Below are positions 19,208 through 33,478 of a DNA stretch of 36,350 bases, piece by piece (positions within the stretch are counted from its first letter, which is position 1; every line of letters starts with the position of its first letter). A model generated the notes under the pieces. It worked only from the letters and a program-made list of their open reading frames with translations. It was not told the origin of the DNA and did no database searches. This DNA is from a virus (taxonomy: Duplodnaviria > Caudoviricetes), in IMG/VR virus record IMGVR_UViG_3300014656_000073, positions 1 to 36,350 of that record; one strand, given 5' to 3'. The position numbers and the translations under genes are program-made.

Positions 19208-19276
19208 GCTTTCCCGATTTCCCCCCCAATATGTAATATTAAGGAAAGTTTTCCCGATATACCCATGTTATGTGTA

Positions 19277-19471: not shown

Positions 19472-19482
19472 CCTAAGACCTC

Positions 19483-20591: not shown

Positions 20592-20909
20592 ACACCCATG
20601 GCACGTCGAACACTGCCTACATGCTATTTTGAATGGTATTTTGAGGGATGCAAACATAAAATTCATAGCTTTTTCTTGCTCAATAATCGGTTTTTGGTAC
20701 ACTTTTCTTTCCACTACAACTCCGGACGATAGAAAGAATCCCCCCGTTGGGCACGGTTCTTTAAATCTAAAATAGATAAGCATCTTATTCGGACCATGTC
20801 CAGTAGCGTACTCCCTATCTATTATATGCCTACCGTTTTGATGCTGCACCCCTCTACAATGTTGTTTTTTGCCATGGTCGAACCAATGAAAGCACTTTAA
20901 TATTTTCAT
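20586..20909 (-). CDS. Hypothetical protein (107 aa)
   Basis: Stop codon lies in the TAAC box of site B. Confidence 0.55.
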   Translation of the reverse strand: MKILKCFHWFDHGKKQHCRGVQHQNGRHIIDREYATGHGPNKMLIYFRFKEPCPTGGFFLSSGVVVERKVYQKPIIEQEKAMNFMFASLKIPFKIACRQCSTCHGCR

Positions 20910-21019
20910 TTTCCACTCCAGGAGCAGTTAGTACACCACGCTGCTCCAACGTCATTTATTAATAATGGGTGGCCACAAATAGGGCATTTTTCCTTTTTTA
21001 ATACTGATTCGTGTGACAT
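20906..21019 (-). CDS. Small Zn-ribbon protein (37 aa, MSHESVLKKEKCPICG...)
   Basis: CPIC...CTNC; ATG just after attC-like site N. Confidence 0.45.
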   Translation of the reverse strand: MSHESVLKKEKCPICGHPLLINDVGAAWCTNCSWSGK

Positions 21020-21022
21020 AAT

Positions 21023-21110
21023 AGATAACCAAGTTTTCAACCAGACCGCGAGAACGGTTCCGGTTTTTATAGCCGCTATGGTGGCGCGGCAGGTTAAAAC
21101 GGCGTTAGCT
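21023..21110 (-). mobile_element. attC-like site N (88 bp)
   Basis: On +: AGATAAC CAAGT TTT(C)AACC AG(A)CCGCG ... CGCGG CA GGTTAAA ACGGC GTTAGCT. Confidence 0.8.
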
Positions 21111-21111
21111 G

Positions 21112-21255
21112 TCACCAGTTCGGGCCTTTCCAGGAAGTTAAAAACCAGAAGCCGAACAGTGCGAAAAAACACAATGCGACAATGCCAAAACTCCCAAGTA
21201 TCCACAAAAGCCACTTTCCAGTGACAACAGCCCATATCGGTATCGTTATTTCCAT
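21112..21255 (-). CDS. Small membrane protein (47 aa, MEITIPIWAVV...)
   Basis: Not in the track; AGGTG RBS, one long hydrophobic helix, stops right at site N. Confidence 0.55.
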   Translation of the reverse strand: MEITIPIWAVVTGKWLLWILGSFGIVALCFFALFGFWFLTSWKGPNW

Positions 21256-21262
21256 GGTGCAC

Positions 21263-21475
21263 CTAAAAAAGTTTTTGTTGTTTGTTCGGTATAGCCAGTT
21301 TACATTTTTCGAGGATATCTATCTCTGATCTGAGATGTGCAATCATCACCAGGTTTGCTCCATTGCTCCGTTCCCTAGCAAGTTCAAGACAAGTTTGCCT
21401 GATCAAACCATCAAGGTTGTCTTCAGTCAGGATGGTGCATCCACCAGAATGGTAAAATTTATCGCCGATTCTCAT
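21263..21475 (-). CDS. Hypothetical protein (70 aa)
   Basis: Track ORF with GGGGGAAG RBS. Confidence 0.55.
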   Translation of the reverse strand: MRIGDKFYHSGGCTILTEDNLDGLIRQTCLELARERSNGANLVMIAHLRSEIDILEKCKLAIPNKQQKLF

Positions 21476-21476
21476 G

Positions 21477-21749
21477 TCACTTCCCCCTGTCGTTATGAAT
21501 TACAAGTTTCCGACCAGCAACATATTGAACAGAAGGGCAACACCAGCATGTATCAGAATCCATGTGAGCAAGTGGCGAATCACAGACATTGCAACAGACA
21601 GAATATATAGCAGTAAGAACACCTGGGCCGATGTCGTCTATTTTGTCTTTAACTCCTTCTGGCAAAACACTATCTAGCCATGACTCAAATGCCGAATATT
21701 CATCCCACGGAGAGGGATATTCTTTGTTCGTTTCAATCCAAGGTCTCAT
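21477..21749 (-). CDS. Hypothetical protein (90 aa)
   Basis: ATG just after attC-like site C. Confidence 0.55.
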   Translation of the reverse strand: MRPWIETNKEYPSPWDEYSAFESWLDSVLPEGVKDKIDDIGPGVLTAIYSVCCNVCDSPLAHMDSDTCWCCPSVQYVAGRKLVIHNDRGK

Positions 21750-21752
21750 ATC

Positions 21753-21840
21753 AGCTAACCAGTCGTTTCAGGGGAAGCCGTGATCCCCTCGGTTTTATCT
21801 GCAAAGTTCAGGGCGGCTCCCCTGAACTCAATCGTTAGCC
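21753..21840 (-). mobile_element. attC-like site C (88 bp)
   Basis: On +: AGCTAAC-5nt-GTT(T)CAGGGGA(A)GCCG ... CGGCTCCCCTGAAC-6nt-GTTAGCC, the canonical R''-L''...L'-R' spacing. Confidence 0.85.
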
Positions 21841-21841
21841 T

Positions 21842-22129
21842 TCAAGCAGGCATCTCGTTGAACGCTGAACATTCCTCATGTTCTCTTGGGTCGTATTCTT
21901 CCCAATCGCTGCACTCTTTATCTTTTGCCGGCACTCTGTTGTCGATAGGTATTGTGTGGTTTCTCCAATAAAGTTTCGGGACTGTTTTCCCTACTTTATC
22001 GGCATTCAACTCTTGCGAAGACGGGTGCATACAAGCAAGTTCTTCAATGGTGAAAATTTTGGTAGGATCTCCAGTCCTGTAAATTGCCGACCTTACATGG
22101 CATGTTCTTTTTGCTGTTTCGTAATCCAT
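21842..22129 (-). CDS. Hypothetical protein (95 aa, cassette cargo)
   Basis: GAGG RBS; bounded by GTTAGCCTT / AAGGCTAAC. Confidence 0.65.
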   Translation of the reverse strand: MDYETAKRTCHVRSAIYRTGDPTKIFTIEELACMHPSSQELNADKVGKTVPKLYWRNHTIPIDNRVPAKDKECSDWEEYDPREHEECSAFNEMPA

Positions 22130-22142
22130 AATTACCTCAAAA

Positions 22143-22231
22143 GGCTAACCAAACGCTTGAGTGGAAGCGAAGAGGTTAGCGGTTTTTTGTATTTATTTCG
22201 GTGGTGCGCTGGTCACCAACGGCCGTTAAAT
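22143..22231 (-). mobile_element. attC-like site D (89 bp, degenerate/chimeric arms)
   Basis: ATTTAAC (stop of the rep gene)...GTTAGCC; arms pair poorly; interior resembles site Q. Confidence 0.55.
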
Positions 22232-22825
22232 TTTTCCTTCTCTTTGAAGTCGCTCGTACTCTACCTGAAATGCGTCTGGCTCTTCTTGCTTGGTTTGTTC
22301 ACCACCATTTTTTCTTTCCCATGAAAGAATAGTTGCATAATGACTTTTGTATTTTTTCCCATTACTTGCTATGTAAAGTGAAAGTGCATGGATTTTATCG
22401 TCAAGCGTTGAATTAAATTGCTGTTTAAGTTTTTCATATTCTTCTAAAGATAAAAAAACATTCTGGAATTCACCGTAGGTATCTTTCTCTGCTTTTGTCT
22501 CTGCTTTTGTCTCTGCTTTTGGTGGGTCATGGTGACGCCGTGGTGGCGTCATGTTGGCGTCAAGGAAGCCTATGTCTATGAATTTATTAAGATTTGGCTT
22601 TGTTGACATGAAGCAAAGTTTCATTAAAAGGTCTGGGTCGGCAGGAATTTCACCATTTTTATCAGCAGCAAGAAGCCATAAACTTACAAGCTGGCCCCTT
22701 TCTTTATCTGACAACCCAACCCACTTGACGTTCCGCATTATGTTTCTATGTATTTTTATCCAAGGAGGCTGACCACGATCTTTTCTATATGATTGCCAAT
22801 CATCCCAGTTGTGTATCTTTAACAT
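22226..22825 (-). CDS. Phage replication initiator / replisome organizer (199 aa)
   Basis: LKIHNWDDWQSY...PPWIKIHR N-terminal domain, low-complexity repeat linker, C-terminal NVFLSLEEYEKL...KKYKSHYATILSW. Confidence 0.75.
   Translation of the reverse strand: MLKIHNWDDWQSYRKDRGQPPWIKIHRNIMRNVKWVGLSDKERGQLVSLWLLAADKNGEIPADPDLLMKLCFMSTKPNLNKFIDIGFLDANMTPPRRHHDPPKAETKAETKAEKDTYGEFQNVFLSLEEYEKLKQQFNSTLDDKIHALSLYIASNGKKYKSHYATILSWERKNGGEQTKQEEPDAFQVEYERLQREGKI
22486..22562. repeat. Iteron-like repeats inside the replication gene (putative origin)
   Basis: Three tandem TCTCTGCTTTTG (22486-22521), then GGCGTCA/TGACGCC repeats. Confidence 0.5.
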
Positions 22826-22835
22826 TTATAGCACC

Positions 22836-22920
22836 AAAAAAAATGGCTCTAAGCACTGACGACTGATAAGGAAGCTTCCAACTCCCCCGCCCCGAAAGGC
22901 ATCGCCAGTGCTTAGAGCCA
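22836..22920 (-). ncRNA. Structured leader RNA with terminator upstream of the replication gene
   Basis: 19-bp closing stem TGGCTCTAAGCACTGGCGA/TCGTCAGTGCTTAGAGCCA enclosing small hairpins, followed by T8. Confidence 0.6.
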
Positions 22921-22966
22921 CACTGTTTGATCGAACAACTTGGAAGTTTAGTTTTATCATGTAATA

Positions 22967-22995
22967 ACCATATCATTTAATCAATTTGGTGTCAA
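22967..22995 (-). promoter_or_regulatory. Sigma70-type promoter
   Basis: TTGACA-17nt-TATGGT on the minus strand, upstream of the leader RNA. Confidence 0.6.
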
Positions 22996-23158
22996 ATTTT
23001 TTCTTGTAGTTCCTGGGGTTATCAATTATTGTTTTTATTGTTTCACCAAGCAGCCTATCTGGTACAAAAATGGTTCTTTTTAAAGATCCACACCTTCCGC
23101 ACCACTCTATTTTTGTACCAGTAAGCCTTGCCCATTTATGTTTGCAGTATGTCGCCAT
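22973..23158 (-). CDS. Hypothetical protein (61 aa)
   Basis: CKH.W...WCGRCG; G-rich RBS. Confidence 0.55.
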   Translation of the reverse strand: MATYCKHKWARLTGTKIEWCGRCGSLKRTIFVPDRLLGETIKTIIDNPRNYKKKFDTKLIK

Positions 23159-23176
23159 TTCACCCCCCCCTGTTTG

Positions 23177-23225
23177 GTTTAACTCTCCGCTGAACCAGAC
23201 GTAGCTGGTTAGCTAGTTGTTATGC
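23177..23225 (-). mobile_element. attC-like site B2 (49 bp, copy 2 of B)
   Basis: Core identical to 20544-20589. Confidence 0.8.
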
Positions 23226-23480
23226 TTAAAAGCCCATAGCCCTGTCAAAATCGGCAATCGCTCCGGCAGGTGTCTCCGCAAAACCGGCAATGCCTTCTTG
23301 CAAATTTTCACCAAGCAGTACACACCATTGGTCGCCGTCTTTGTACGGCACAAGCCCGTATATAACAGCCCACATTCCCCGGCGTTTTTCAGTTGCTAGG
23401 GCTTGTTCTGCTGCATTAGTAGACATATGGGCGGCATTCCATTGTTCGTTTAATATCCCTTGTTCACTAGCATAACTCAT
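23226..23480 (-). CDS. Phage hypothetical protein (84 aa)
   Basis: KDGDQWCVLLGENLQEGIAGFAETP motif; GGGAGG RBS. Confidence 0.65.
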   Translation of the reverse strand: MSYASEQGILNEQWNAAHMSTNAAEQALATEKRRGMWAVIYGLVPYKDGDQWCVLLGENLQEGIAGFAETPAGAIADFDRAMGF

Positions 23481-23755
23481 AATGATTCCTCCCTAATAGC
23501 TTCAAAATATAGTTGAAAAAGTGCCACCATTGCCTCATCCGTAATCGCAATTTTTGTTTCTTTCACTTCACTAGCGCCGACGAGCATTTTAAATTTTATT
23601 GCCCATGTCCCGTCGTGTAGTTTTGCCAAACATACTCGTCGATTTTTAAGTTTTATCATTTTACCTGAAATAGCATAACAAGCCGCTGCACGTGGAACAC
23701 AAGGGGCGGCGGTTATTGGTCTATCCTCTGTCAGTGTTTCCGGTATTTCAATCAT
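23477..23755 (-). CDS. Hypothetical fusion protein (92 aa); first 26 aa encoded inside site E
   Basis: N-terminus identical to that of 32481-32747. Confidence 0.6.
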   Translation of the reverse strand: MIEIPETLTEDRPITAAPCVPRAAACYAISGKMIKLKNRRVCLAKLHDGTWAIKFKMLVGASEVKETKIAITDEAMVALFQLYFEAIREESL

Positions 23756-23795
23756 GGTTCAGTCTCCCTTGTGTCCAGTGAGCTAATCGTTATGC
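23673..23795 (-). mobile_element. attC-like site E (123 bp) carrying RBS, ATG and a 26-codon leader
   Basis: GCATAAC..GCTCACTGGACACAAGGG...CCCTTGTGT(T)CCA(C)GTG(C)AGC..GTTATGC; near-identical copy at 32441-32563. Confidence 0.85.
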
Positions 23796-23972
23796 GCCGC
23801 CAAACTTCAAGATCGCGACCCAAACAAGCATTGCAATACTGTGAAGCAATCCAAATGTGTCGGCACCAACTGAGTTTTTTACAACGCGTGGATGCTCACA
23901 CAAAAGGAATATCGACCTCAAGATCACACCGAGGCACCCCACCCAGAAAGAAAAAGTAATGTACGTCTCCAT
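23790..23972 (-). CDS. Small 2-TM membrane protein (60 aa, cassette cargo)
   Basis: GGAGG RBS before METYIT; stop lies in the TAAC of site E. Confidence 0.6.
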   Translation of the reverse strand: METYITFSFWVGCLGVILRSIFLLCEHPRVVKNSVGADTFGLLHSIAMLVWVAILKFGGA

Positions 23973-23987
23973 TTGCACCTCCTTACG

Positions 23988-24116
23988 GCATAACAAGGTT
24001 TTTCAAGGCCGGCTGGGTTGAAGCTCCGCTGTTCGATTCGGCTATCTCGGCTTTTCGTTTTTCAGATGTTTTCATGTCTTTTCTCCCCTTGGGTCAAGTG
24101 ACCTCAATCGTTATGA
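23988..24116 (-). mobile_element. attC-like site F (129 bp, non-matching arms) containing a 30-aa ORF at 23983-24075
   Basis: TCATAAC GATTGA GGTCACT...GGAG-ATG...CCTTGAAA AACCTT GTTATGC. Confidence 0.6.
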
Positions 24117-24120
24117 TTCT

Positions 24121-24309
24121 CTACCAATGTATATGGTCAAGGCTTCCTGTTCCCTCACTTCCTGCATTGCTTTCGTGCCTCTTCATATTTGATCTGTGGC
24201 ATCTTGGCACTCCTTTTTCAGTCCCATATTTTGTTGTTCGGCATTGCTCACAAATAAAAACAACCTTTGTCAAGTCCTCACCAGTTCTTTCTTTCCTGTT
24301 CAAGTCCAT
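24121..24309 (-). CDS. Hypothetical protein (62 aa)
   Basis: GGGAG RBS; CxxC. Confidence 0.5.
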   Translation of the reverse strand: MDLNRKERTGEDLTKVVFICEQCRTTKYGTEKGVPRCHRSNMKRHESNAGSEGTGSLDHIHW

Positions 24310-24312
24310 TTG

Positions 24313-24594
24313 CTACTCCCATTCTTGAATTTTTCCGCATTGCCAGCACATAATGTTATGGCTTATGCCACTTATTGTAAAAAGGTGGCACCCGCATTTA
24401 CATTCCCAATAAACTTCAGGCACTACCCCATATTTTAAGACACCCTTCATGGTTTTACATTCAGGGCATTCTAGTTCTTCAAAAACCTCAACCTCCGTCA
24501 CCGCCACCCACTCGTGCTTACACGCCGCACATATCGCCTGTCCGGTCAAGTGCGGGTGGTTTTTTTCGTTCTCCATTGGTATTATTGTACCCAT
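24313..24594 (-). CDS. Zn-ribbon hypothetical protein (93 aa)
   Basis: CAACKHEW...LECPEC...WECKCG...CWQCG; AAGGAG RBS. Confidence 0.65.
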   Translation of the reverse strand: MGTIIPMENEKNHPHLTGQAICAACKHEWVAVTEVEVFEELECPECKTMKGVLKYGVVPEVYWECKCGCHLFTISGISHNIMCWQCGKIQEWE

Positions 24595-24614
24595 AGCAAC
24601 TCCTTAAAAAAATA

Positions 24615-24667
24615 TCATAACAAAACATTCCAGCGGACAGCTTTGCCGCCTGAATTTAGCGTTATCT
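24615..24667 (-). mobile_element. attC-like site G (53 bp)
   Basis: On +: TCATAAC AAAAC ATT(C)CAGCGG(A)CA gctt TGCCGC-C-TGAAT TTAGC GTTATCT. Confidence 0.8.
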
Positions 24668-24889
24668 GCCATAGTAAATTAGTCTTTTAGCGTGGTGTAA
24701 AGCAAGCCTACAATGTCTTGCAACTTCTGCCCTATCTTCTCTACTAATGTCAAGGCTTCCAATAGGGTATTCAGCTCTTTTAATTTCACCCTCAAGCCAC
24801 TCTTTAAATGCCGTGGCAGATAACCCGTCAATTAAGCGGGATTCGCTAGGCAATAGTTCCGGCTCTATGTTGTGCGTTTTTTCGGTCAT
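24662..24889 (-). CDS. Hypothetical protein (75 aa) containing an internal attC half-site (about 24814-24850)
   Basis: PSESRLIDGLSA encoded by CCTAGCGAATCCCGCTTAATTGACGGGTTATCTGCCA. Confidence 0.55.
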   Translation of the reverse strand: MTEKTHNIEPELLPSESRLIDGLSATAFKEWLEGEIKRAEYPIGSLDISREDRAEVARHCRLALHHAKRLIYYGR

Positions 24890-24890
24890 T

Positions 24891-25124
24891 TTATTTCACC
24901 TTTTTATTTCCATGTTTTAAACCGTGGCAACATACACACAACGTGATAAGGTTTTCGGCTGTATCTGAGCCACCATGGCTCTTGAATTCTATGTGGTGTA
25001 TTTCTAAGTTGTATGGGGATTTACATTCTTGACAGTGCTTATCTCTCTCAAAAACCATTTGTAAAAGTTTCTGTAGCCTCTTCCCCTTCAGGCGTATTGG
25101 CTTTACCTTCCAGATAGGTTCCAT
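24891..25124 (-). CDS. HNH endonuclease (77 aa)
   Basis: VFERDKHCQEC...LEIHHI...GGSDTAENLITLCVCCH. Confidence 0.85.
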   Translation of the reverse strand: MEPIWKVKPIRLKGKRLQKLLQMVFERDKHCQECKSPYNLEIHHIEFKSHGGSDTAENLITLCVCCHGLKHGNKKVK

Positions 25125-25394
25125 TTATTTTTCTTTTTCCATTTCTTCTAAAATCCGGTCGTATTGCTCTTGCATAGCAGGAAGCTCAAAGGACAACGCA
25201 CCATAAATAGCAAGAAACGATCTTTTGTCATCGTAGTTATCAAGCCAACAAAGATGACCTTTACACCAAAAATCACCCATTCCGGCAAACAACCAACTAA
25301 AGGAATTAATCTTTTCTTTTAGTCGTTTCGCCTCTGCCTCTAGGTCTCTTCTGCACTCTTTTGCACTACCAACGATCATGTTTCTGTCGTACAT
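25125..25394 (-). CDS. Hypothetical protein (89 aa)
   Basis: GGAG RBS; coupled in the operon. Confidence 0.55.
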   Translation of the reverse strand: MYDRNMIVGSAKECRRDLEAEAKRLKEKINSFSWLFAGMGDFWCKGHLCWLDNYDDKRSFLAIYGALSFELPAMQEQYDRILEEMEKEK

Positions 25395-25395
25395 C

Positions 25396-25881
25396 TCACT
25401 CCCTCCCTAAAATGTTTTTATCTTCTGGCCTTGTAAGTGTAACCCCTGCCATTGTTGCATCTTGGTCTATCTCGGTTAGATATTCTCTCATCTGGTCAAC
25501 GTTTGCGTCTGTTATGCTCGTTAAGCGTGTTACTTCTTGTTTTAAGGCGTTGTATTCTGTTTCCATACCTTCTCTTGTCCTAACTTTCTTTATCGCGTCA
25601 CACATGGCAGCGTAGGTGGCTTTATCTCGGTAAAAAATACGGGTTAGGAATTTACCCTTATAATTTGTGTGCATGTCCTCTTTGGTTTCGCCACGGTCGT
25701 TTGCTATTTCTGTCAACCACAACCAATATAATCTCCTCTGGCGGCTTGATAGAGATTCCTTGTGAAGCTGGATTATTACCTCATGCACTTCATCGTATGG
25801 AAGATGCTGGATTATATGCAGGGCATTGTCTTTCTGCTTATCGCCAAGTATTGTTATTGTTTTTTGCATGCTTTTAAACAT
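25396..25881 (-). CDS. ninB: NinB/Orf-family recombination accessory protein (161 aa)
   Basis: S.RQRRLYWLWLTEIA...H...K..FL...SIT.......M.EYL..I...A...GV.L pattern. Confidence 0.7.
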   Translation of the reverse strand: MFKSMQKTITILGDKQKDNALHIIQHLPYDEVHEVIIQLHKESLSSRQRRLYWLWLTEIANDRGETKEDMHTNYKGKFLTRIFYRDKATYAAMCDAIKKVRTREGMETEYNALKQEVTRLTSITDANVDQMREYLTEIDQDATMAGVTLTRPEDKNILGRE

Positions 25882-25916
25882 ATCCTTTAGCCTTGCAAGG
25901 GCGGTAGATTCTTATG

Positions 25917-26219
25917 TTATGCGTAGTCGCAAAGGCGTGTCTCGCCATAGCCACCCGTGTGTAGTTCTCGGTAGTCAACATCCTTAACGAAACCTTTCGT
26001 AACAAGCCAAGGCATGTATTCTATGTTTTCGTTTTTGTAATCTCTTTCCACCACTCCGTTTTTAATGCTCCGCCCTGTCTCACTACACCAAACATTAAGC
26101 TGTTCTATTGCGTCAAAATCGTTCAGAACTTCAAACAACCCATTTACACAGTAGTCGCTATACTCACCAGTAGACACAGTAACCAATTCACCTTTTTTAA
26201 ATCCGCTTATTTCATCCAT
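25917..26219 (-). CDS. Hypothetical protein (100 aa, cassette cargo)
   Basis: AGGAG RBS; STGEYSDY motif; bounded by GTTATGCG / CGCATAAC. Confidence 0.65.
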   Translation of the reverse strand: MDEISGFKKGELVTVSTGEYSDYCVNGLFEVLNDFDAIEQLNVWCSETGRSIKNGVVERDYKNENIEYMPWLVTKGFVKDVDYRELHTGGYGETRLCDYA

Positions 26220-26245
26220 GTTAGTCTCCTCTTATATTTGTAATC

Positions 26246-26329
26246 GCATAACAAAACGCTCAACTTGACGCGAACACCTGCTATCCATCAAACAAAACCT
26301 AGGCGCGCAAGTTAGCTCCCACGTTACAC
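26246..26329 (-). mobile_element. attC-like site J (84 bp)
   Basis: On +: GCATAAC-5nt-GCT(C)AACTTG(A)CGCG ... CGCGCAAGTTAGC-6nt-GTTACAC; canonical geometry and extrahelical bases. Confidence 0.85.
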
Positions 26330-26530
26330 CCTCCACACCTCAACAGTGTCACCATATTCCCTCGTCGTTACCTCGATGTTGTTTAGTCGTGCAAATCGGT
26401 AAGCACATCGTTTTATAGAGGCCCGCTTTTTCTTCATGCGTGACCTGAAAACAGCAGGATCATAGCTATCAAGCAAACCTGAAAAATCATATTTCTTTGA
26501 TCTGCCACTTCCTTTTTTTGGTATTCCCAT
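26324..26530 (-). CDS. Small basic putative DNA-binding protein, first gene of the leftward early arm (68 aa)
   Basis: AAGGAG upstream; very basic; KKYDFS...VEVWRV. Confidence 0.5.
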   Translation of the reverse strand: MGIPKKGSGRSKKYDFSGLLDSYDPAVFRSRMKKKRASIKRCAYRFARLNNIEVTTREYGDTVEVWRV

Positions 26531-26556
26531 AATAAAATTTTTCTCCTTTACAGTTC

Positions 26557-26655
26557 AATATAATTGATTTACAAATAAAGTCAAACAAAAAAAGATTTAT
26601 TGTTAAAAATAAAAGTGAAAATAAACTTGACAAGATAAACCGAATGTTCTAACGT
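26557..26655. promoter_or_regulatory. Divergent sigma70-like promoters of the early arms
   Basis: Minus: TTGACT(26584-26579)-16nt-TATATT. Plus: TTGACA(26627-26632)-17nt-TAACGT. AT-rich intergenic region where gene orientation switches. Confidence 0.55.
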
Positions 26656-26744
26656 GAAATCTAAAGGTATTGCTTTTGCTTATTAATTTAATAATCAGAG
26701 GGTGCCGAAATGTAACAGCCGGAGAAAGACCGGCAGAATAATTG

Positions 26745-26935
26745 GGGGCTGTGGCGGAATTGCATACGCTGCCCTGACTGCACTTGAGGTGAATTGGTCG
26801 GGCTTGTCGGTGATAACACCGGCTGTTAATCCTCTTTCTTGTTAGTGAGTCCAAAGGGTAATGACAAGGCTTACCACACTAATATTGAAACGATTAATGG
26901 GTTTTCCATTGCGGGTTCGAGTCCTGCCAGCCCCA
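26745..26935 (+). ncRNA. tRNA-like RNA (class II/Leu-like frame) with a large insert in place of the anticodon arm
   Basis: Acceptor GGGGCTG/CAGCCCC-A, D arm GCG-GAATTGCATA-CGC, variable arm ATGG/CCAT, T arm GCGGG-TTCGAGT-CCTGC; 191 nt; no assignable anticodon. Confidence 0.7.
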
Positions 26936-26970
26936 AACATTGAATGGACAAAGAGACTAACAGGGGGGAA

Positions 26971-27171
26971 ATGATGTGCGAATCACAACGTTTGGAATAT
27001 TCAGAAAACTCGGCCAAGGAATCCATCGGCAATTGGCAGATCACAATAGCGTTACTGCTTGCGATCATGCTATTCGGCTGGGTGATTTTCCACGGAGCCA
27101 GCGACTCAAGTGTAAGGAGTGCCGCAAGAGAAGCAAGGACAAGTCGGTTTGTGAGCTTTGTGGATATGTAG
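26971..27171 (+). CDS. Single-TM membrane protein (66 aa)
   Basis: G-rich RBS; TM segment ITIALLLAIMLFGWVIF. Confidence 0.45.
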   Translation: MMCESQRLEYSENSAKESIGNWQITIALLLAIMLFGWVIFHGASDSSVRSAAREARTSRFVSFVDM

Positions 27172-27221
27172 GGCGCAGATTTGATAAAGTTGTTTAATGA
27201 TTAATTCAGGAGATTGCGATT

Positions 27222-27542
27222 ATGGAACATAGATGCGAATATTGCCGAGGAGGAAGTGGAGGACCATGCACATGCAAGACCGCCAACCTCAGCAATTCTG
27301 CTGTAATGCCTGGTTATGTTACATACGATGTGCAAATTAAATGCCCACACTGCGACAAAGAATTACACCTAAACCAGTATCCATATAACGATGACACGAC
27401 AGATTACGGCGACACCGATGATGTTGTTGGGATGATGCTATTCGGTGGGCCGTCAGAACCAGCAAAATGGGAGAATCTTTCCGTACCTATAAAATGTTGC
27501 GGGTGTAAAAAAGTTTTTAAACTGGGTAGTTTTCAAACATAA
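27222..27542 (+). CDS. Cys-rich hypothetical protein (106 aa) with an internal attC half-site ending at 27313-27320
   Basis: AGGAG RBS; internal GTTATGTT is complementary to terminal AACATAAC. Confidence 0.6.
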   Translation: MEHRCEYCRGGSGGPCTCKTANLSNSAVMPGYVTYDVQIKCPHCDKELHLNQYPYNDDTTDYGDTDDVVGMMLFGGPSEPAKWENLSVPIKCCGCKKVFKLGSFQT

Positions 27543-27590
27543 CAACCCAGTTCAAGAGAGCAACGCTTCTCTTGCAACGAAAAGTTAAAA
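27537..27590 (+). mobile_element. attC-like site L (54 bp)
   Basis: ACATAAC-6nt-GTTCAAGAGAG caacg CT(T)CTCTTG(C)AAC-5nt-GTTAAAA. Confidence 0.85.
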
Positions 27591-27601
27591 GGAGGAACAA
27601 T

Positions 27602-27838
27602 ATGCTAGAGATTACAAGTCCAGGGTATGAAGATTTGACAGACGAAGAAAGGTCGGATGTGTCTGACAACGGTAGTGGTAAGGAATGGGCAGGGTACATA
27701 AAAGTCACTCACAATGGAAAAACGATCCTTCTTGAATCTGACGCAATGGAGCCAGAAGATGCTTCTTTCGGGCGTGATCTAGGGTGGGTCTACGATATAA
27801 TAATGAGGGCCTACGAATTAGGTAAGAAGGATGCATAA
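27602..27838 (+). CDS. Hypothetical protein (78 aa, cassette cargo)
   Basis: AAGGAGG RBS; SDAMEPEDASFGRDL motif. Confidence 0.65.
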   Translation: MLEITSPGYEDLTDEERSDVSDNGSGKEWAGYIKVTHNGKTILLESDAMEPEDASFGRDLGWVYDIIMRAYELGKKDA

Positions 27839-27872
27839 CGCTTCTCTTGCAACGAAAAGTTAAAAGGAGGAA
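27833..27872 (+). repeat. Truncated copy of site L (site M); 36-bp direct repeat 27562-27597 = 27837-27872
   Basis: AACGCTTCTCTTGCAACGAAAAGTTAAAAGGAGGAA occurs twice. Confidence 0.85.
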
Positions 27873-27874
27873 AC

Positions 27875-28159
27875 ATGATGTTAGCAAAAGAACCTGTCTG
27901 GATAGCTGAATGTGGCAAGTGTTTTGATGTTCTTGAAATACCTCTAGTGAAAAAAGAAGATGGCCTCTGGTATGATGGAGAAGTTGACACCTTCCTTGAA
28001 GAAGAGGGTTGGAAATTCACAGATTATGAGCGTGGGGTGGTTGTTTGTGGTGGTTGCCACGAAGCAAGGCGGCAAGAGATTGAAACTGAGGACATTATCA
28101 GGGAAAACAGGGTAGAAATGCCAAGGGGTTATTCTTTTGGACAAGTTGGTTTTTATTAA
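27875..28159 (+). CDS. Hypothetical protein (94 aa)
   Basis: AAGGAGG RBS; CxxC...GW...CxxC. Confidence 0.65.
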   Translation: MMLAKEPVWIAECGKCFDVLEIPLVKKEDGLWYDGEVDTFLEEEGWKFTDYERGVVVCGGCHEARRQEIETEDIIRENRVEMPRGYSFGQVGFY

Positions 28160-28285
28160 CCTAAAACTAAGGGGTGAGCGATTATGAGTGACGCATATTG
28201 CCCAAGATGTAAGGGTAGAGATGATGATTGTTGGATGTGTAATAAGCCCGAGCCTAGCGAATCCAACTTGAGTGCTGCGTTATGC
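28154..28285 (+). mobile_element. attC-like site O (132 bp; loop carries the start and N-terminus of 28184-28426)
   Basis: TATTAAC..ACTAAG...CTT(G)AGT-5nt-GTTATGC; inner stem imperfect. Confidence 0.6.
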
Positions 28286-28426
28286 TGTAAAGACGATGCT
28301 CAATGCAAAGACTGTGAACATGCTTGGCACAATTTAGGGATTGCCTCATTAAGCGAAAATACTTGGTGCTATATGTATCTAAAGAAAATGACGTGTTGTA
28401 AAAAACATAAAAGAAAAACAGCATAA
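28184..28426 (+). CDS. Cys-rich hypothetical fusion protein (80 aa)
   Basis: Reads through the right arm of site O (PSESNLSAALC). Confidence 0.6.
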   Translation: MSDAYCPRCKGRDDDCWMCNKPEPSESNLSAALCCKDDAQCKDCEHAWHNLGIASLSENTWCYMYLKKMTCCKKHKRKTA

Positions 28427-28581
28427 CGACCAAGCTCAAGGGCAAAAGCCCAACGGGAGAAACTAGATGCCTGAATATCTGTGTGTAGAGATATGTCTAA
28501 AGGAGAAGATATGAAAACAATAGAAGAAATAGTACAAGCACACCAGCAGCGTAGCTGTCTGAGTGCAGCGCTTGGTTAGCG
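28421..28581 (+). mobile_element. attC-like site P (161 bp, partly mismatched arms; 22-aa ORF 28511-28579 in loop)
   Basis: GCATAAC GACCAA GCTCA...GTG(C)AGC GCTTG GTTAGCG; TAACGACCAAGCTCA shared with site T. Confidence 0.65.
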
Positions 28582-28609
28582 GATTTAATTAAATTAAGGA
28601 GGTTATGGT

Positions 28610-28813
28610 ATGTCTGAAATATTGCTTACACTATGTTCATTAACAATGGCACTGAGTGTATATTTTCTATTTACGGTAGTTCGATCACTCCAAGAAACAT
28701 GGATAAGGATGGAGACCTTGGTTGAAACGTATTTAGATTTTTTTATGAAAAACTTTAATTCAGAATCTGTCTCCGGTGGTATTGTAAATGATGGTTCTAA
28801 AACCCTTGAATAA
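28610..28813 (+). CDS. Single-TM membrane protein (67 aa)
   Basis: AAGGAGG upstream; N-terminal hydrophobic helix. Confidence 0.55.
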   Translation: MSEILLTLCSLTMALSVYFLFTVVRSLQETWIRMETLVETYLDFFMKNFNSESVSGGIVNDGSKTLE

Positions 28814-28943
28814 TGAGACGATGGGATTTCTACGCCAACATTTATTCTTGGATAGAACCAATAGAATTAATCTTAGAACATCTAAACCTAGAGCTTAATT
28901 ATGAACCAGCACGTGAGCCAGAAACAACCCTGAAGGAGAACAA

Positions 28944-29195
28944 ATGATTACATACAAATCATGTACAAAACCAGCATCAAGCAGAGAGGATATAATTTTC
29001 AACGGCAAGAAAATCGGTGATATGGATATTATCGATGGCAAATACCGAGCGCACATCTGGTTTGACGATGTAACAACCGACTGTTTCGGGTATGGAATTC
29101 ATAAAGAGGGGGCCATTGAAAATGCTATTCTAAAAGGTACATCAGACGCAATTACATTAATAGCAAACCTTGACGCACTTGTGGGGGAATTATGA
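28944..29195 (+). CDS. Hypothetical protein (83 aa)
   Basis: AAGGAG RBS. Confidence 0.6.
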   Translation: MITYKSCTKPASSREDIIFNGKKIGDMDIIDGKYRAHIWFDDVTTDCFGYGIHKEGAIENAILKGTSDAITLIANLDALVGEL

Positions 29196-29380
29196 GCATG
29201 TACGTTAAGCGAGGAGGAGAGGGGCACATTGACTCTGACTTTGTAGAAGTATGGGAAGTGCCAGACGGCTCTGCAATCGACCAGGAGGATGACAAGGGGC
29301 TGCTTGAGGCTTACGAAAATGGCGAGATATGCAGAGAGGATATGATTAACGAACTTGGATTCAAGGAGGAGGATTTATAG
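29192..29380 (+). CDS. Acidic hypothetical protein (62 aa)
   Basis: ATGA-coupled; Asp/Glu-rich. Confidence 0.55.
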   Translation: MSMYVKRGGEGHIDSDFVEVWEVPDGSAIDQEDDKGLLEAYENGEICREDMINELGFKEEDL

Positions 29381-30037
29381 ATGAGTGAAGCAAAAGATGA
29401 TATGGTTGATGTGCCAGCCGTGACCCTCAACATATACCAACGGATAAACGAAGTAAGAAAGAAAATATCTTATCTTAAAAAAGATGCAACGGTCACGGGG
29501 TATAAGGCGGTAACTCACGACCACGTTACGGCATCAATCCGTGACCACCTTGTTACGTTTGGAATAGTTATTGTCCCAAGGCAAACATCTTGGGAAACAG
29601 CCGACACAGGCAAAGCAACAAGCAAGGGGACACCATATACTCGATTTGAGGGAGATTATGAGTTTGATGTGGTAAATGTGGATGACCCCAAAGATATGTT
29701 TACAGGTAAAGTCCATGCCCACGCAGAAGATCAGGGTGATAAGGGGCCAGGGAAAGCAATTAGCTATGCGCTCAAGGCTTTTGAATTAAAGTTGTTCAAT
29801 ATTGAGTCCGGAGAAGATGATGAGGAACGACCAGAACAGGAGCTTGTAAAGCTAAGTGACGAGCAGATTATTACACTTCGGGAAATGTGCGAAGGATATG
29901 ATTGGCCCGTTGACGAAACACTCGAAAGGCTTGCAAAAACATACGGGCTAACAAAAATAGTTGACCTGCCAGAAACTCACTTTAAAAACTGTATTGCTAG
30001 AATGGAAGCACAATATGCTAAACAAGCAGAGAAGTAA
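29381..30037 (+). CDS. erf: ERF-family single-strand annealing protein (218 aa)
   Basis: NIYQRINEVRK...LKKD...DQGDKGPGKAISYALK..ELKLFNI (ERF signature). Confidence 0.85.
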   Translation: MSEAKDDMVDVPAVTLNIYQRINEVRKKISYLKKDATVTGYKAVTHDHVTASIRDHLVTFGIVIVPRQTSWETADTGKATSKGTPYTRFEGDYEFDVVNVDDPKDMFTGKVHAHAEDQGDKGPGKAISYALKAFELKLFNIESGEDDEERPEQELVKLSDEQIITLREMCEGYDWPVDETLERLAKTYGLTKIVDLPETHFKNCIARMEAQYAKQAEK

Positions 30038-30617
30038 TGGGTGGCACGAACAACGAAAAGCCAGAATAACAGCTAGTCGTCTTGGTGACGTTCTTGCAGG
30101 TATAAAAACAAAACGATTTAATGGATATATTCAAGATATTGTTTTGTCAATGCTCGGTGCCCCAACATTCCAAGATGATAAGCCGTGGTTTCAACATGGT
30201 GTTGATTGGGAACCAGAAGCAATAGCCCTATATGAATGGGAAACAGGAAACACTGTTGCTGAATCTGGGTTTATTGTGCATCCAGATTATGATTTTATAG
30301 GTTGCTCTCCAGACGGCATAATAACTGGCGGTGGTGTAGAGGCAAAAAGCAGGAAGTCCCTCACCGGCCACCTGAAAAGCGAAAAGGCAGGAATAGATAC
30401 AGTATACATGCCACAGGTTCAAGGGTCAATGTGGATAACGGGCTCATTGTTTTGGGACTTTATCTCATACTATAAAAACAACAACGGTAAAACGCTGTTA
30501 CACATACACAGAGTTAACCGTGATGATAAATATATTAAAAACCTTGAGGAACGATGTCTAATGTTTTGGGCTATGGTTCAAAACGAACTAAAACAAAGGA
30601 GAAGAAATGATAAATAA
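30015..30617 (+). CDS. YqaJ/lambda-exonuclease family nuclease (200 aa)
   Basis: QRS..W...R...ITAS, G...EPEA, GCSPDG, EAK and Y.PQVQG.MWITG motifs; likely ATG start at 30015. Confidence 0.9.
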   Translation: MLNKQRSNGWHEQRKARITASRLGDVLAGIKTKRFNGYIQDIVLSMLGAPTFQDDKPWFQHGVDWEPEAIALYEWETGNTVAESGFIVHPDYDFIGCSPDGIITGGGVEAKSRKSLTGHLKSEKAGIDTVYMPQVQGSMWITGSLFWDFISYYKNNNGKTLLHIHRVNRDDKYIKNLEERCLMFWAMVQNELKQRRRNDK

Positions 30618-31014
30618 AGCAATCATCATAGGCAATCTTGGCAAAGACCCTGAAGTACGTTACTCACAGACAGGTGGGGCAATAGCCTCTTTCTCTATTG
30701 CAACCACCGAAACTTGGAAGAAGCAGGATGGCACCAAAGAAGAAAAAACAGAATGGCACAAGATAGTTGCTTTCGGTAGGCTTGCAGAAATCTGCGGAGA
30801 ATATCTTTCCAAAGGAAGCAAGGTTTATCTTGAAGGCAAGATTCAAACAAGAAAGTGGGAGAATAAAGACGGTGTAACACAATACACCACAGAGATTGTG
30901 GCGCGAGAGATGAAGATGCTTACCCAAAGAAACGGAGAGGCAGGAAGCAGCGACAGGGCAAACCAAAACGAGGAGCCACCGTTCCCTGAAATGGACGATT
31001 CGGTTCCATTTTAA
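30607..31014 (+). CDS. ssb: Single-stranded DNA-binding protein (135 aa)
   Basis: NKAIIIGNLGKDPEVRY...TEWH...KGSKVYLEG; acidic tail DDSVPF. Confidence 0.97.
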   Translation: MINKAIIIGNLGKDPEVRYSQTGGAIASFSIATTETWKKQDGTKEEKTEWHKIVAFGRLAEICGEYLSKGSKVYLEGKIQTRKWENKDGVTQYTTEIVAREMKMLTQRNGEAGSSDRANQNEEPPFPEMDDSVPF

Positions 31015-31018
31015 TACC

Positions 31019-31112
31019 TTATAACGCACATAATCACCAGCGGCACCACCGAAGAAATACACGGATAGTGCCGCCACCGTTCGCTCCGTCTGCGTGAATT
31101 TAATTGTTAAGT
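31019..31112 (+). mobile_element. attC-like site Q (94 bp)
   Basis: TTATAAC-6nt-AATCACCAGCGG...CCG(T)CTG(C)GTG(A)ATT-5nt-GTTAAGT. Confidence 0.8.
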
Positions 31113-31127
31113 TTCTGGAGGTGGGTA

Positions 31128-31340
31128 ATGGCTGACATAATAGAATTTGATGATCTTGGAAACTACCGAGGGTGTTTACAAATAACTAAAGGTGATGGGA
31201 AGTTTTTTGCCCGTGTTGACTGCGACCTTAATTATGGAACGGATCATGAAACGGATTGGGAAGATATACCACAATACCTGTTTGATGCTTTGACCAAATA
31301 TGCCAATGGCGTAGATACTACTAAAATATCTGAAACTTAA
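31128..31340 (+). CDS. Hypothetical protein (70 aa, cassette cargo)
   Basis: GGAGG RBS; bounded by GTTAAGTTTC / GAAACTTAAC. Confidence 0.65.
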   Translation: MADIIEFDDLGNYRGCLQITKGDGKFFARVDCDLNYGTDHETDWEDIPQYLFDALTKYANGVDTTKISET

Positions 31341-31394
31341 CGCCAGAACTCAGCCCGCAGGCGTTAGCCTGTCGGCTGTAGTGATTTGTTAAAC
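31335..31394 (+). mobile_element. attC-like site R (60 bp)
   Basis: ACTTAAC GCCAGA ACTCAGC CCGCAGGC gtta GCCTGTCG GCTG(T)AGT GATTT GTTAAAC; same layout as the bottom strand of short aadA-type attC sites. Confidence 0.9.
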
Positions 31395-31417
31395 GAAATT
31401 GCACGAAAGGAGATAAA

Positions 31418-31741
31418 ATGCACTGGATATATGCGCACTTGATCGGAGACTATTTAATCCAAAATGACTGGATGGCGAAAGGGAAGAAAACATCCTCTTT
31501 TATTTGCTTTGTCCACACCGTGACCTACTTGTTTCCATTCCTCTTTTGCAGCCTTGAGTGGTGGCAGATTATGGCCATCGGGGCGCAACACTTCGCACAA
31601 GATAGAACTGGAGTAATTGTGTGGATGCTTAATGCAACCGGCAAAGGTGGCTTTGCAAAACCACCAATGGCCCCTTGGAGCATTATAGTAACTGACAACG
31701 TAATCCATATTTTATTTATGGCTTGGATCGTGTCCGTTTAA
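31418..31741 (+). CDS. DUF3307-family membrane protein (107 aa, cassette cargo)
   Basis: AHLIGDYLIQNDWMA..K...H...Y...HF.QDR...DNVIH. Confidence 0.75.
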   Translation: MHWIYAHLIGDYLIQNDWMAKGKKTSSFICFVHTVTYLFPFLFCSLEWWQIMAIGAQHFAQDRTGVIVWMLNATGKGGFAKPPMAPWSIIVTDNVIHILFMAWIVSV

Positions 31742-31924
31742 CGCAAAGCTAACCAGACCAATGGGAAAAGGAGAAAATTAATGGCTACTTTATGCAGAGA
31801 TTGCGCCGACACAACATGCCCACATTTTGACAGTGTGCATTTGGGCGGATTAAAATGTTTTAAAAAGAAAACAGACACCACCGAACTGCGCCACATTGGG
31901 TCTGAGTTGAGCGAATTGTTAGAA
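31736..31924 (+). mobile_element. attC-like site S (189 bp; loop carries RBS and N-terminus of 31781-32089)
   Basis: GTTTAAC..GCTAACCAGACCAATG...CATTG(G)GTCTG(A)GTT(G)AGC GAATT GTTAGAA. Confidence 0.8.
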
Positions 31925-32089
31925 CGATCTAGGTCACTACTTTCCTGGATAAATGAAAAGGCAACAAAGGCCGATAGCCTGTCAAAAAGCGTGGCCATAA
32001 GCGAGAAAGACAGATTATTCAACTTAGGTCGTGCTGTTGCCTTTGCCGAAGATTACACGCAACTTAAAGAAATTATTGATACGTTCTAA
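31781..32089 (+). CDS. Hypothetical fusion protein (102 aa): Cys-rich leader from site S plus helical cargo
   Basis: AAGGAG RBS inside site S; reads through its right arm (HIGSELSELL). Confidence 0.6.
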   Translation: MATLCRDCADTTCPHFDSVHLGGLKCFKKKTDTTELRHIGSELSELLERSRSLLSWINEKATKADSLSKSVAISEKDRLFNLGRAVAFAEDYTQLKEIIDTF

Positions 32090-32266
32090 CGACCAAGCTC
32101 ACCGGCTGGCGTAAAGGAGGAACTAAATGGCAAAAATACATAAACTTCCAGAGAAAGAAAAAATTAAGCACACCAAAGAATCACGAGCGTGGGAAAAAAT
32201 AGAAAAAAACATTGATGCCCAACAACCCAGCGAGGACGCCAGTCCGAGTGAAGCGAATTGTTCGGT
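32084..32266 (+). mobile_element. attC-like site T (183 bp; loop carries RBS and ORF start)
   Basis: TTCTAAC GACCAA GCTCACCGGCTGGCGT...ACGCCAG(T)CCG(A)GTG(A)AGC GAATT GTTCGGT. Confidence 0.8.
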
Positions 32267-32297
32267 TACAAAAGAGGATGTTGCCCTTGGGAGATAA
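32127..32297 (+). CDS. Small ORF starting inside site T (56 aa, MAKIHKLPEK...)
   Basis: Not in the track; AAGGAGG RBS; stops shortly after the GTT box. Confidence 0.5.
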   Translation: MAKIHKLPEKEKIKHTKESRAWEKIEKNIDAQQPSEDASPSEANCSVTKEDVALGR

Positions 32298-32446
32298 AAA
32301 AATACTTGTGCGTGGTTTGCGGGGAACTACACGAAGAAACTGAGCAATGCGCTAAGTGCGGTGAACGTTACTGCTCTGACTGGTGCGGTGGATGGGAAGA
32401 CCAAGAGCATACTTGCAAAAATTGTAGCAAGGTTGATGGAATCTAA
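32258..32446 (+). CDS. Cys-rich (Zn-finger-like) ORF, start uncertain
   Basis: Four CxxC-type pairs; stop lies in the TAAC of site E2; only a TTG start inside site T. Confidence 0.4.
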   Translation: MFGYKRGCCPWEIKKYLCVVCGELHEETEQCAKCGERYCSDWCGGWEDQEHTCKNCSKVDGI

Positions 32447-32563
32447 CGATTAGCTCACTGGACACAAGGGAGACGAAACTATGATTGAAATACCGGAAAC
32501 ACTGACAGAGGATAGACCAATAACCGCCGCCCCTTGTGTTCCACGTGCAGCGGCTTGTTGTGT
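32441..32563 (+). mobile_element. attC-like site E2 (123 bp, copy of E)
   Basis: 113/116 nt identical to the reverse complement of E between TAAC and GTT. Confidence 0.85.
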
Positions 32564-32747
32564 GATTGTTGAGGGGAAGTTTTATTCCGGCGGGTATACC
32601 ATCTGCGTTTGCAAAACAAAGAAAATTGCTGTGAAGAAGTGTCGGGATGATGGCTTTTCATATTGTCGTAAGGATGATTTGTGGAATGGAGAGCATCACG
32701 GGGACTCTTATTATCGCAGAATTGAGAGAGAAGATTTTTACACATAA
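32481..32747 (+). CDS. Hypothetical fusion protein (88 aa); first 26 aa encoded inside site E2
   Basis: Same leader as 23477-23755 but an unrelated C-terminal part. Confidence 0.6.
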   Translation: MIEIPETLTEDRPITAAPCVPRAAACCVIVEGKFYSGGYTICVCKTKKIAVKKCRDDGFSYCRKDDLWNGEHHGDSYYRRIEREDFYT

Positions 32748-32828
32748 CGATTTTTAATAAGTGGTGCGCCCGTGAATAACCAGCATGAGCGCAGAGGTGT
32801 TCGCATCCACTTAATTTACTGGTTATGC
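32742..32828 (+). mobile_element. attC-like site U (87 bp)
   Basis: ACATAAC..AATAAGTGGTGCG...CGCA(T)CCACTTA(A)TT TACTG GTTATGC. Confidence 0.8.
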
Positions 32829-32839
32829 GAGGATTTAAA

Positions 32840-33100
32840 ATGGAAAACGGAAATTTTGGACAAGCACTGGAAGAGATGAAATCCGGACGTAAATGCTGGC
32901 GTAAAGGGTGGAATGGTAAGGGGATTACAATTGAGCTGCAAAACCCTGACGAAAATAGCAAGATGACAAGCCCCTACATTTTTATTGATACCACCGGACT
33001 GCAAACCGACAACGATGCTGCGCCAAAAAGCTGTGTGCCTTGGCTGGCCTCCCAGACTGATATGCTTGCCGAAGATTGGTACTCTGACAGAGTATATTAA
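32840..33100 (+). CDS. DUF2829 protein (Tad2-like anti-defence nucleotide sponge family, 86 aa)
   Basis: NFGQALEEMKSG.K..RKGWNGKG...PYIFI...VPWLASQTDMLAEDW; ATG at 32840 after GAGGA. Confidence 0.85.
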   Translation: MENGNFGQALEEMKSGRKCWRKGWNGKGITIELQNPDENSKMTSPYIFIDTTGLQTDNDAAPKSCVPWLASQTDMLAEDWYSDRVY

Positions 33101-33129
33101 CTGCCTAAAATGCGCCGCCTACATGGGGC

Positions 33130-33319
33130 GCATAACGCCAGAATTGAGGAGCCTTGGGCTTAAAGGAGAAAGTAGATGAGAACATGTAGGGGGTGTGTGA
33201 ATATACCGAACTTTTGCATTGGCGAGAAAGATGGTGGAGCCGAGAAGGATTGTTATGTGGGACTTACCGAAGCCACCGCACAACCAAGCCCAAGGTCTGT
33301 CTCAGATGCTTTGATATGT
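33130..33319 (+). mobile_element. attC-like site V (190 bp; GTT box reads GAT; loop carries RBS and N-terminus of 33176-33478)
   Basis: GCATAAC GCCAGA ATTGAG..GCCTTGGGCTT...AAGCCCAAGG(T)C..CTCA(G)AT GCTTT GATATGT. Confidence 0.7.
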
Positions 33320-33478
33320 GATGTGGAGGTGGGAAGCGAGGAAACACTTTCGGGATGGAAGCAACCTTATGTTTCCTTGAGAATTGGCAACTTTGAGTTT
33401 AAGAGACTTTACCAGACTAAAAACGGTGCTGAGAGATGTGTGGCTAAAGTTAAAGAGCTTTTAACTGCCAGCACATAA
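33176..33478 (+). CDS. Hypothetical fusion protein (100 aa)
   Basis: AAGGAG RBS in site V; ends in CACATAAC. Confidence 0.6.
   Translation: MRTCRGCVNIPNFCIGEKDGGAEKDCYVGLTEATAQPSPRSVSDALICDVEVGSEETLSGWKQPYVSLRIGNFEFKRLYQTKNGAERCVAKVKELLTAST

Follow-up and report, generated by a model that had tools for sequence, protein, structure and literature searches.

Integron-type attC sites lying backwards before their genes in a groundwater phage contig, with one site body carried by two unrelated genes

The viral contig IMGVR_UViG_3300014656_000073 (Duplodnaviria; Caudoviricetes), analysed over its whole length of 36,350 bp (hereafter the window), contains two near-identical 123-bp elements, copies A and B, each joined in one open reading frame (ORF) to an unrelated protein, the cargo. 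The element is an integron-type attC hairpin lying backwards before its gene, a well-supported identification, and conservation among related sequences suggests that it likely supplies the ribosome-binding site (RBS), start codon and first 26 codons of that gene. Taken as a whole, the reading of an attC before the gene, a start at the ATG in its loop, and a site copied between cassettes at its GTT end appears probable to us. The features are located in Table 1.

From TAAC to GTT, 23792-23677 (minus strand) and 32444-32559 (plus strand) are identical at 113 of 116 nt without gaps, and at 115 of 123 over 23673-23795 and 32441-32563; the pair is the sole exact inverted repeat of at least 20 nt in the contig. 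Identity stops 1 nt upstream of AAC and 0 nt downstream of GTT, and the three mismatches (23761/32475, 23760/32476 and 23756/32480) all lie within the 8 nt separating AAGGGAG from ATG. The first 26 residues of ORF A and ORF B are the same, and the parts after residue 26 gave no BLASTP alignment at E <= 100. Each flank fits its own cargo end: GTTATGC of copy A pairs at 7/7 positions with GCATAAC at the end of cargo A, and GTTGTGT of copy B at 6/7 with ACATAAC at the end of cargo B, the copy B variant in sequencing run X2 being GTTATGT, which pairs at 7/7. All four features (near-identical copies with unrelated C-termini, differences confined to the spacer between RBS and ATG, identity halting at the boxes, and flanks fitting their own cargos) had been described in the original prediction, made from the letters of the window, and are borne out here.

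The same prediction named an assembly artefact as a possible undoing. A single site could have been doubled by mis-joining of related phages, as short-read unitigs break at the repeat and relatives have the site too. Nevertheless, a separate Logan assembly of run X1 joins both cargos and both upstream flanks to the site at a depth of 6-9, on contigs of similar depth that are identical to the window, and the copies differ at three positions, with both alleles seen again in X2, so that an artefact is disfavoured and indeed very improbable. X1 is possibly the same sample as the window's source, and its contigs leave the pairing of upstream flank and cargo ambiguous, which is why it is unconfirmed how the 8.6 kb separating the copies are oriented; the leader-cargo joints of both copies exist whichever way these 8.6 kb lie. 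Run X2, from a different study, contains both spacer alleles, cargo B (its coverage excludes cargo A) and a third upstream neighbour joined at AAC of the A/B site. The sequencing runs with the contig are groundwater metagenomes.

In gene direction, the element runs from TAAC and 5 nt through a stem, whose positions 16, 20 and 24 (counted from the 3′ end) are unpaired, and a loop of 48 nt to a further 5 nt and GTT. Both copies have the extrahelical bases C16, C20 and T24 on the arm facing AAC, the outer two being separated by a stem of 6 bp; AAC in R′ pairs with GTT in R″, and the four flanking bases fit RYYY/RRRY in part only. The spacers of 5 and 5 nt and the length of 123 bp lie within the range of attC sites, with their unpaired spacers of 5-6 nt and lengths of 57-141 bp (PMC5027507; PMC5371416), and the extrahelical positions 16, 20 and 24 are those of the attC bottom strand (PMC5027507). 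The bottom-strand oligonucleotides of two phage attCs share the form of the site (PMC9892861 supplement). A pattern derived from the site matched 31 viral loci and, in 12 of the 64 parts of the collection, 157 bacterial loci, long arrays included. The exact stem pattern of the site had 0 matches in viral contigs, a BLASTN search of 50,697 phage records with the site gave no match, and a pattern of RBS plus right arm found 2 loci only. Very large homogeneous attC arrays, with intI nearby and up to 22 pattern matches per 16 kb, were observed in a Capsulimonadaceae metagenome-assembled genome (L037-L042, L053-L055, L061-L065, L086-L094, L112).

Several properties weigh against the attC identification. 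Position 16 is C instead of the usual G, and neither R″ fully fits GTTRRRY. The DNA fold of the gene strand is complete in copy A (z -1.8) and has an open R box in copy B (z -0.45), folding being weak in both. In a consensus fold of five family members, two-sided change is seen in 2 of 24 pairs only, and the covariation term, being positive, comes from an alignment that misplaces a bulge. Two other classes of element were dismissed: insertion sequence or transposon ends, since protein family scans of the window ORFs gave no transposase match, and invertase sites, since a recombinase is absent and the inversion of the copies merely mirrors the two divergent arms formed by the arrays.

The orientation of the sites determines which unit could move. 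All 10 window sites scoring at least 10 with our own detector lie on the gene strand (0-1 were obtained in 10 shuffles), so the ORFs are on the bottom strand, unlike those of canonical cassettes, which lie on the top strand with the attC behind them. Given that the coding strand is the attC bottom strand, crossover would occur at TAA/C (in copy A between 23790 and 23789, bottom strand reading), and a cassette would therefore comprise a site and the gene following it. In 13 of 20 complete sites the 4 nt after GTT equal those that end the downstream cargo, as against 1 of 20 for the upstream neighbour, and the mean end match was reached by 0 of 20,000 permutations; cassette ends (core and inverse core) are in this way perfectly complementary at 13/20 sites. 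As counterweights, the list of 20 sites was hand-picked, site 27836 being dropped for wrong length, and the commonest end, ATGC, accounts for 6/20, so that the perfect match of copy A could be chance at about 1 in 3.

Joints in run X2 and in another phage point to the same unit. In X2, new neighbours are joined at AAC of three sites, including the A/B site, which indirectly suggests that IntI may recombine these sites. Cargo B with the same two ends stands behind a related site in the unrelated phage L001, and the far end of cassette A is joined to another site in X2. Among viral loci, 2 are canonical (gene on the opposite strand), 10 inverted and 15 unclear (n=27); among bacterial loci the counts are 75, 10 and 46 (n=131), with one genome supplying many overlapping loci. 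The original idea of a portable leader module holds in part: the site carries an RBS, an ATG and 26 codons, which are probably in use, and unrelated cargos share one site body both here and in other phages. What does not hold is the delivery of a leader to new neighbours, as the attC lies backwards and the unit normally moving would be the site plus its downstream gene.

The loop ATG can be taken as the likely start because its frame is conserved across sites and cargo homologues. All four proteins with cargo B have a leader of 25-26 residues in the same frame, with no later start conserved. The cargo A homologues all begin upstream of the Gly31 column (25/25), so a start at Met33 would make this protein the shortest of its family; most have their own Met near that column, and one has a different leader of like style. 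RBS and ATG are conserved in six members of the A/B site family and lie in the loops of 8 of 20 window sites, five reading at least 30 codons beyond GTT. The longest downstream frame starts at a loop ATG in 17 of 28 viral sites; 500 cargo swaps averaged 7.7 with a maximum of 14, and shuffled loops gave 5.7. For bacterial sites the count is 5 of 239, or 3 of 117 when each locus is counted once.

Alternatively, the 26 residues could be a gene-calling artefact, with both cargos starting after GTT. Several features speak against the loop start in this sense. In copy A, Met33, preceded by a weak AGGT, overlaps the stop of a 6-codon frame that starts directly after GTT and could provide coupling, and the RBS is concealed, being partly paired in the stable RNA hairpin (z -3.5 and -2.3) even without the outer stem; it would hence need coupling to the upstream stop, or else expression would be low. 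Copy B, furthermore, has an in-frame GTG at residue 28. However, this GTG is absent from the L001 counterpart, and the retention of leader frame and length in four of four homologues, the frame test, and the RBS and ATG conserved in six family members make a start after GTT decidedly unlikely. The leader shows no secondary structure in either predicted model and differs widely in sequence among homologues, which renders a new protein function unlikely and leaves the proposed route to new or chimeric proteins weak. Another leader, that of site 31739, differs in X2 (31775-31858) at no fewer than 15 coding positions, with 7 of these 15 being third codon positions and no indels among the differences listed.

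Since ordinary IntI shuffling would move site and cargo jointly, a second event, at the GTT end, has to be assumed for one site to have come onto two cargos. Such changes of cargo are common all the same: in 11 of the 14 pairs of site bodies that are related, the cargos are unrelated and identity is lost within 0-4 nt past GTT, while one pair keeps its cargo and two are duplicates; it counts against this series that the 11 pairs, gathered by site pattern, represent six site families only. Sites of the A/B family are attached to four unrelated cargos, all in one frame, and the loop of site 24113 is visibly recombined (a chimera). A pair of short sites (23181-23222 and 20547-20588) is the second same-site/different-cargo pair in the genome. 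Because site plus cargo B recurs elsewhere and site plus cargo A is found only here, the pairing with cargo A is likely derived, and its matched ends together with the mobile far end of cargo A favour a swap between existing cassettes, which is the most likely origin of the A/B pair. Moderate evidence points to cargo A having been a cassette already, not freshly captured DNA; the pair as a snapshot of cassette genesis, as initially envisaged, is possible.

Such genesis de novo would mean that IntI joins the other strand of the site to a GTT in ordinary DNA and afterwards cuts at an AAC farther downstream; cargo A and that of the short pair would be fresh captures, expressed at once from the loop start if in frame. 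Identity ending at both R boxes, the known low-rate recombination of the top strand at R″ (PMC5027507), the resemblance of most cargo A homologues to plain genes with their own Met, the presence of core genes such as the replication initiator between sites, and two same-site pairs within one genome are all in keeping with this. Nevertheless, the GTT boundary is uninformative, as any swap would produce it where homology ends, the ends of cargo A are matched and X2 has its far end attached to a different site, and the homologues P0011 and P0034 have cassette-like N-termini (judged from the protein only), so that birth de novo retains a small but appreciable chance. Doubtful to a similar degree is the broader notion of phages as cassette factories, in which IntI, working on both strands, would fasten a start-carrying hairpin to an in-frame GTT and then free the unit at AAC. 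If true, phages would hold an inverted cassette pool, ready-to-express cassettes would arise in two steps, and the A/B and short pairs would be two births.

For the preferred swap between existing cassettes, we propose three steps. IntI acting in trans, from the host or a co-infecting phage, would cut TAA/C directly behind the upstream stop, and site, leader and downstream cargo would move as one cassette. Early transcription would then cross the array, and a ribosome terminating at TAA could help to open the RBS-hiding hairpin, so that translation restarts at the loop ATG and continues through the right arm into the cargo, the leader probably being a passive, unstructured by-product. Finally, site plus cargo B would be the older combination, and cargo A, already a cassette, would have acquired the site via a crossover in or beside the R″ box. 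Short-homology recombination by the ERF/YqaJ system of the phage is a tentative first candidate for this crossover, at somewhat less than an even chance; IntI acting on the other strand, known for top-strand recombination that cuts in R″ at a low rate (PMC5027507), is a possible but lesser one, and other routes are rather unlikely. The position of the boundary fits both ERF/YqaJ and top-strand IntI and does not discriminate between them.

One could go further and regard the sites as attC relics serving as homology blocks and translation starts, with ERF/YqaJ instead of IntI doing all the shuffling. The contig lacks an integrase, chimeric, half and GAT-ended sites exist, and ERF, YqaJ, SSB and NinB are present. 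However, the joints to new neighbours lie at AAC, where 1-3 nt of flank are shared, cassette ends are matched in 13/20 sites, extrahelical bases are retained, and related arrays in other phages end at IntI genes; the relic explanation is therefore unlikely.

The integrase itself has to be sought in relatives. The contig, which is incomplete, gave no match to an integron integrase or other tyrosine recombinase (TIGR02249, PF00589), nor does a recombinase follow either array end in it. IntI lay below the cut-off in 27 of 32 other viral records and was found in 0 of 3 further records. The absence from the contig and from these records argues against IntI-driven movement. IntI exceeded the cut-off in the other 5 of the 32, two of the five being near duplicates, with a sixth just short of it, and occurred in 2 of 9 viral records at least 90% complete. 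In the six phages, intI follows the array on the gene strand, tens of bases past an unpaired AAC that is attI-like as judged by eye. These records are apparently complete phage integrons with inverted ORFs, in which intI is likely co-transcribed with the array. In bacteria, a full intI lies no more than 25 kb from a matched site in 8 of 19 genomes, always with the same site-to-intI geometry (read by hand), and one bacterial intI about 50 kb from an array breaks it; phage and bacterial arrangements differ only in the ORF strand. In one of the phages, G007 (L193 10434-10667 and 12537-12818), the same leader-plus-cargo unit occurs twice in one array.

The contig (69 ORFs scanned) is of linear class, about 50% complete according to CheckV, and carries P22-like portal, terminase and capsid genes. 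Its early region comprises ERF, YqaJ, SSB, NinB, HNH, replication initiator and Tad2-like genes. Promoter and terminator scans of the window stayed at chance level, no tRNA genes were found in it, and curated RNA families (Rfam) gave 0 matches at E <= 0.5 over 17000-34500. One RNA sequencing run covered 6 of 30 bins, which weighs neither for nor against. The hand list comprises 25 sites and half sites, in 17 of which TAA is the stop of the preceding gene; elsewhere in the window, sites measure 42-183 nt from TAAC to GTT. By our own detector and the hand list, the window has at least two attC within 3 kb and no integrase, as in the clusters of attC sites lacking an integrase (CALINs) of Qi et al., and no intI stands beside an array as in a complete integron. 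At the unpaired TAAC at 19270, a tentative attI candidate, X2 shows a long site of the right array inserted, with about 160 nt of that X2 contig unresolved, and the region only loosely resembles the array ends before intI in other phages.

Table 1. Location of sites, reading frames, arrays and recombination genes (window positions, unless a phage record is named)
Feature	Position	Strand	Remarks
attC-type site, copy A	23673..23795	-	R′ AAC, L box, C16/C20/T24 extrahelical, 48-nt loop, R″ GTTATGC
attC-type site, copy B	32441..32563	+	anatomy as copy A; R″ GTTGTGT
Shine-Dalgarno-like AAGGGAG, copy A	23764..23770	-	8 nt before ATG at 23755; partly paired in predicted RNA stem
Shine-Dalgarno-like AAGGGAG, copy B	32466..32472	+	8 nt before ATG at 32481
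ORF A, 92 aa	23477..23755	-	26-residue site-encoded leader + cargo A
ORF B, 88 aa	32481..32747	+	identical leader + Cys-rich cargo B; stop is TAA of next site
Second ORF in cassette A, 84 aa	23226..23480	-	overlaps ORF A stop
Inferred cassette A, 570 bp	23220..23789	-	site body, ORF A, second ORF, to next TAA/C; end match and X2 far-end joint
Inferred cassette B, 301 bp	32447..32747	+	cargo B with same ends behind related site in L001
Left array	19270..26326	-	13 hand-listed sites/half sites among early genes; ends in unpaired TAAC at 19270
Right array	27540..33476	+	12 hand-listed sites/half sites; ends in lone left arm at 33476
Short site	23181..23222	-	46-nt identity to 20547-20588, different cargo; start codon inside absent
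Short site	20547..20588	-	partner of 23181-23222
Chimeric site	23992..24113	-	A/B-family left arm, RBS, ATG joined within loop to non-pairing right arm
ERF, YqaJ exonuclease, SSB genes	29381..31014	+	candidate enzymes for short-homology swaps between sites
Phage intI genes	G012 59459-60397; G007 9471-10394; G004 1923-2852	gene strand	after array
Phage intI genes	G018 11085-12014; G021 27520-28446; G026 12973-13902	gene strand	after array

Other sites in the arrays vary in form. Two sites, 27540-27597 and 27836-27872, share a 36-nt direct repeat, the second copy having lost most of its left arm with the same RBS following. A right-arm half site lies inside an ORF (24820-24851 in 24662-24889), and lone left arms at 25919, before NinB, and 21495, before ORF 21263-21475, are followed by RBS and ATG. 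The long site at 33133-33315 has a 46-codon leader in frame with its cargo, and its GTT is replaced by GAT, predicted to be dead at R″. The site at 31022-31108 is 95% identical to one in a 60-kb phage (L216), and the two differ in both flanks. One cassette with perfectly matching ends (32745-33133) is occupied by a Tad2-like anti-defence gene (PF11195, E 3e-21). Between a site and the next TAAC, 22228-23222 contains the replication initiator gene and a long hairpin (22835-22929), with an end match of 3/4; core genes such as this one may be cassette cargo.

The cargo proteins resemble few known families. Neither ORF A nor ORF B has a family in Pfam, PHROG or NCBIfam. HMMER with ORF A gave 28 matches, with P0009 and P0027, which are long and repetitive, left out as chance, and a word-index protein search with ORF A returned only itself. 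The model of cargo A predicts four strands and one helix, with weak fold matches to PC4/PUR single-strand-binding proteins, all at E >= 0.03 and below the Atlas bar, a lead only. The model of cargo B is unusable (predicted local distance difference test 47.5), and scanning metagenomes with cargo B recovered no contig other than that of the window.

The way in which a new gene comes by its attC is a standing question in the field. Cassette genesis is named only as a constraint in the accessible parts of 10.1101/2024.07.02.601686. The A/B pair is likely a recent swap of one hairpin onto another gene and bears on gene cassette formation, and two same-site/different-cargo pairs with base-exact joints in one small genome provide defined substrates for studying crossover at the R″ end. 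The backward layout would suit a phage, as early promoters could read the cassettes, each with its own start, including that with the Tad2-like anti-defence gene. Inverted cassettes would presumably be silent from the bacterial Pc promoter, so that phage and host pools could be separate while sharing one recombinase. Furthermore, loop starts could account for a class of odd N-termini in annotated phage proteins.

The literature searched, covering few subscription journals, yielded no inverted-cassette arrays with starts inside attC (for further related work, see PMC11511950 and 10.1101/030866). With integron attC sites and cassettes, the window sites share the AAC triplet, R and L boxes, 5-nt spacers, extrahelical bases, length and paired ends, and in sedentary chromosomal arrays, too, one site occurs on many ORFs (PMC5027507; PMC5371416). 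In contrast to integron cassettes, the window ORFs lie on the bottom strand, each site stands before the gene it belongs to, and RBS, ATG and coding sequence are contained in the loop. Phage CALINs, of which 17 were reported in 10,705 genomes (Qi et al. 2023, PMC9892861), are likewise attC clusters without integrase, but the window has about 25 sites spread over 14 kb and arranged in two divergent arms, core genes lying among them; the accessible parts of PMC9892861 do not mention inverted ORFs or starts inside attC. Applied to individual phages, our own detector found a single, canonical site in TJE1, none in Rctr41k, a genome with an integrase-like gene, and one doubtful match in the first 50 of 132 kb of PH101. 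In the reverse integrons of Treponema (PMC3607928; PMC7691350), intI and cassette genes are co-directed, as in the IntI-bearing phages; there, however, intI is flipped and a stop codon lies in R″, whereas the phages keep the bacterial intI/attC geometry and have flipped ORFs. A Treponema-type reverse integron was dismissed on this ground, intI not being inverted relative to attI/attC.

Starts lent by recombination sites are known from ORF-11 and ORF-17 of attI1 and from short attC ORFs, which serve genes without a start of their own (PMC8876359), and GCUF1-OXA-28 is a read-through fusion across a site (PMC3375312). The attI1 and attC-ORF cases serve whichever cassette follows, mostly by coupling, whereas the start in the window would be the cassette's own and fused in frame. 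Synthetic attC sites placed in protein linkers (Nivina et al. 2020, PMC7439510) also have an attC arm doubling as coding sequence; these are engineered, whereas the case in the window is natural, and only its loop and right arm would be translated.

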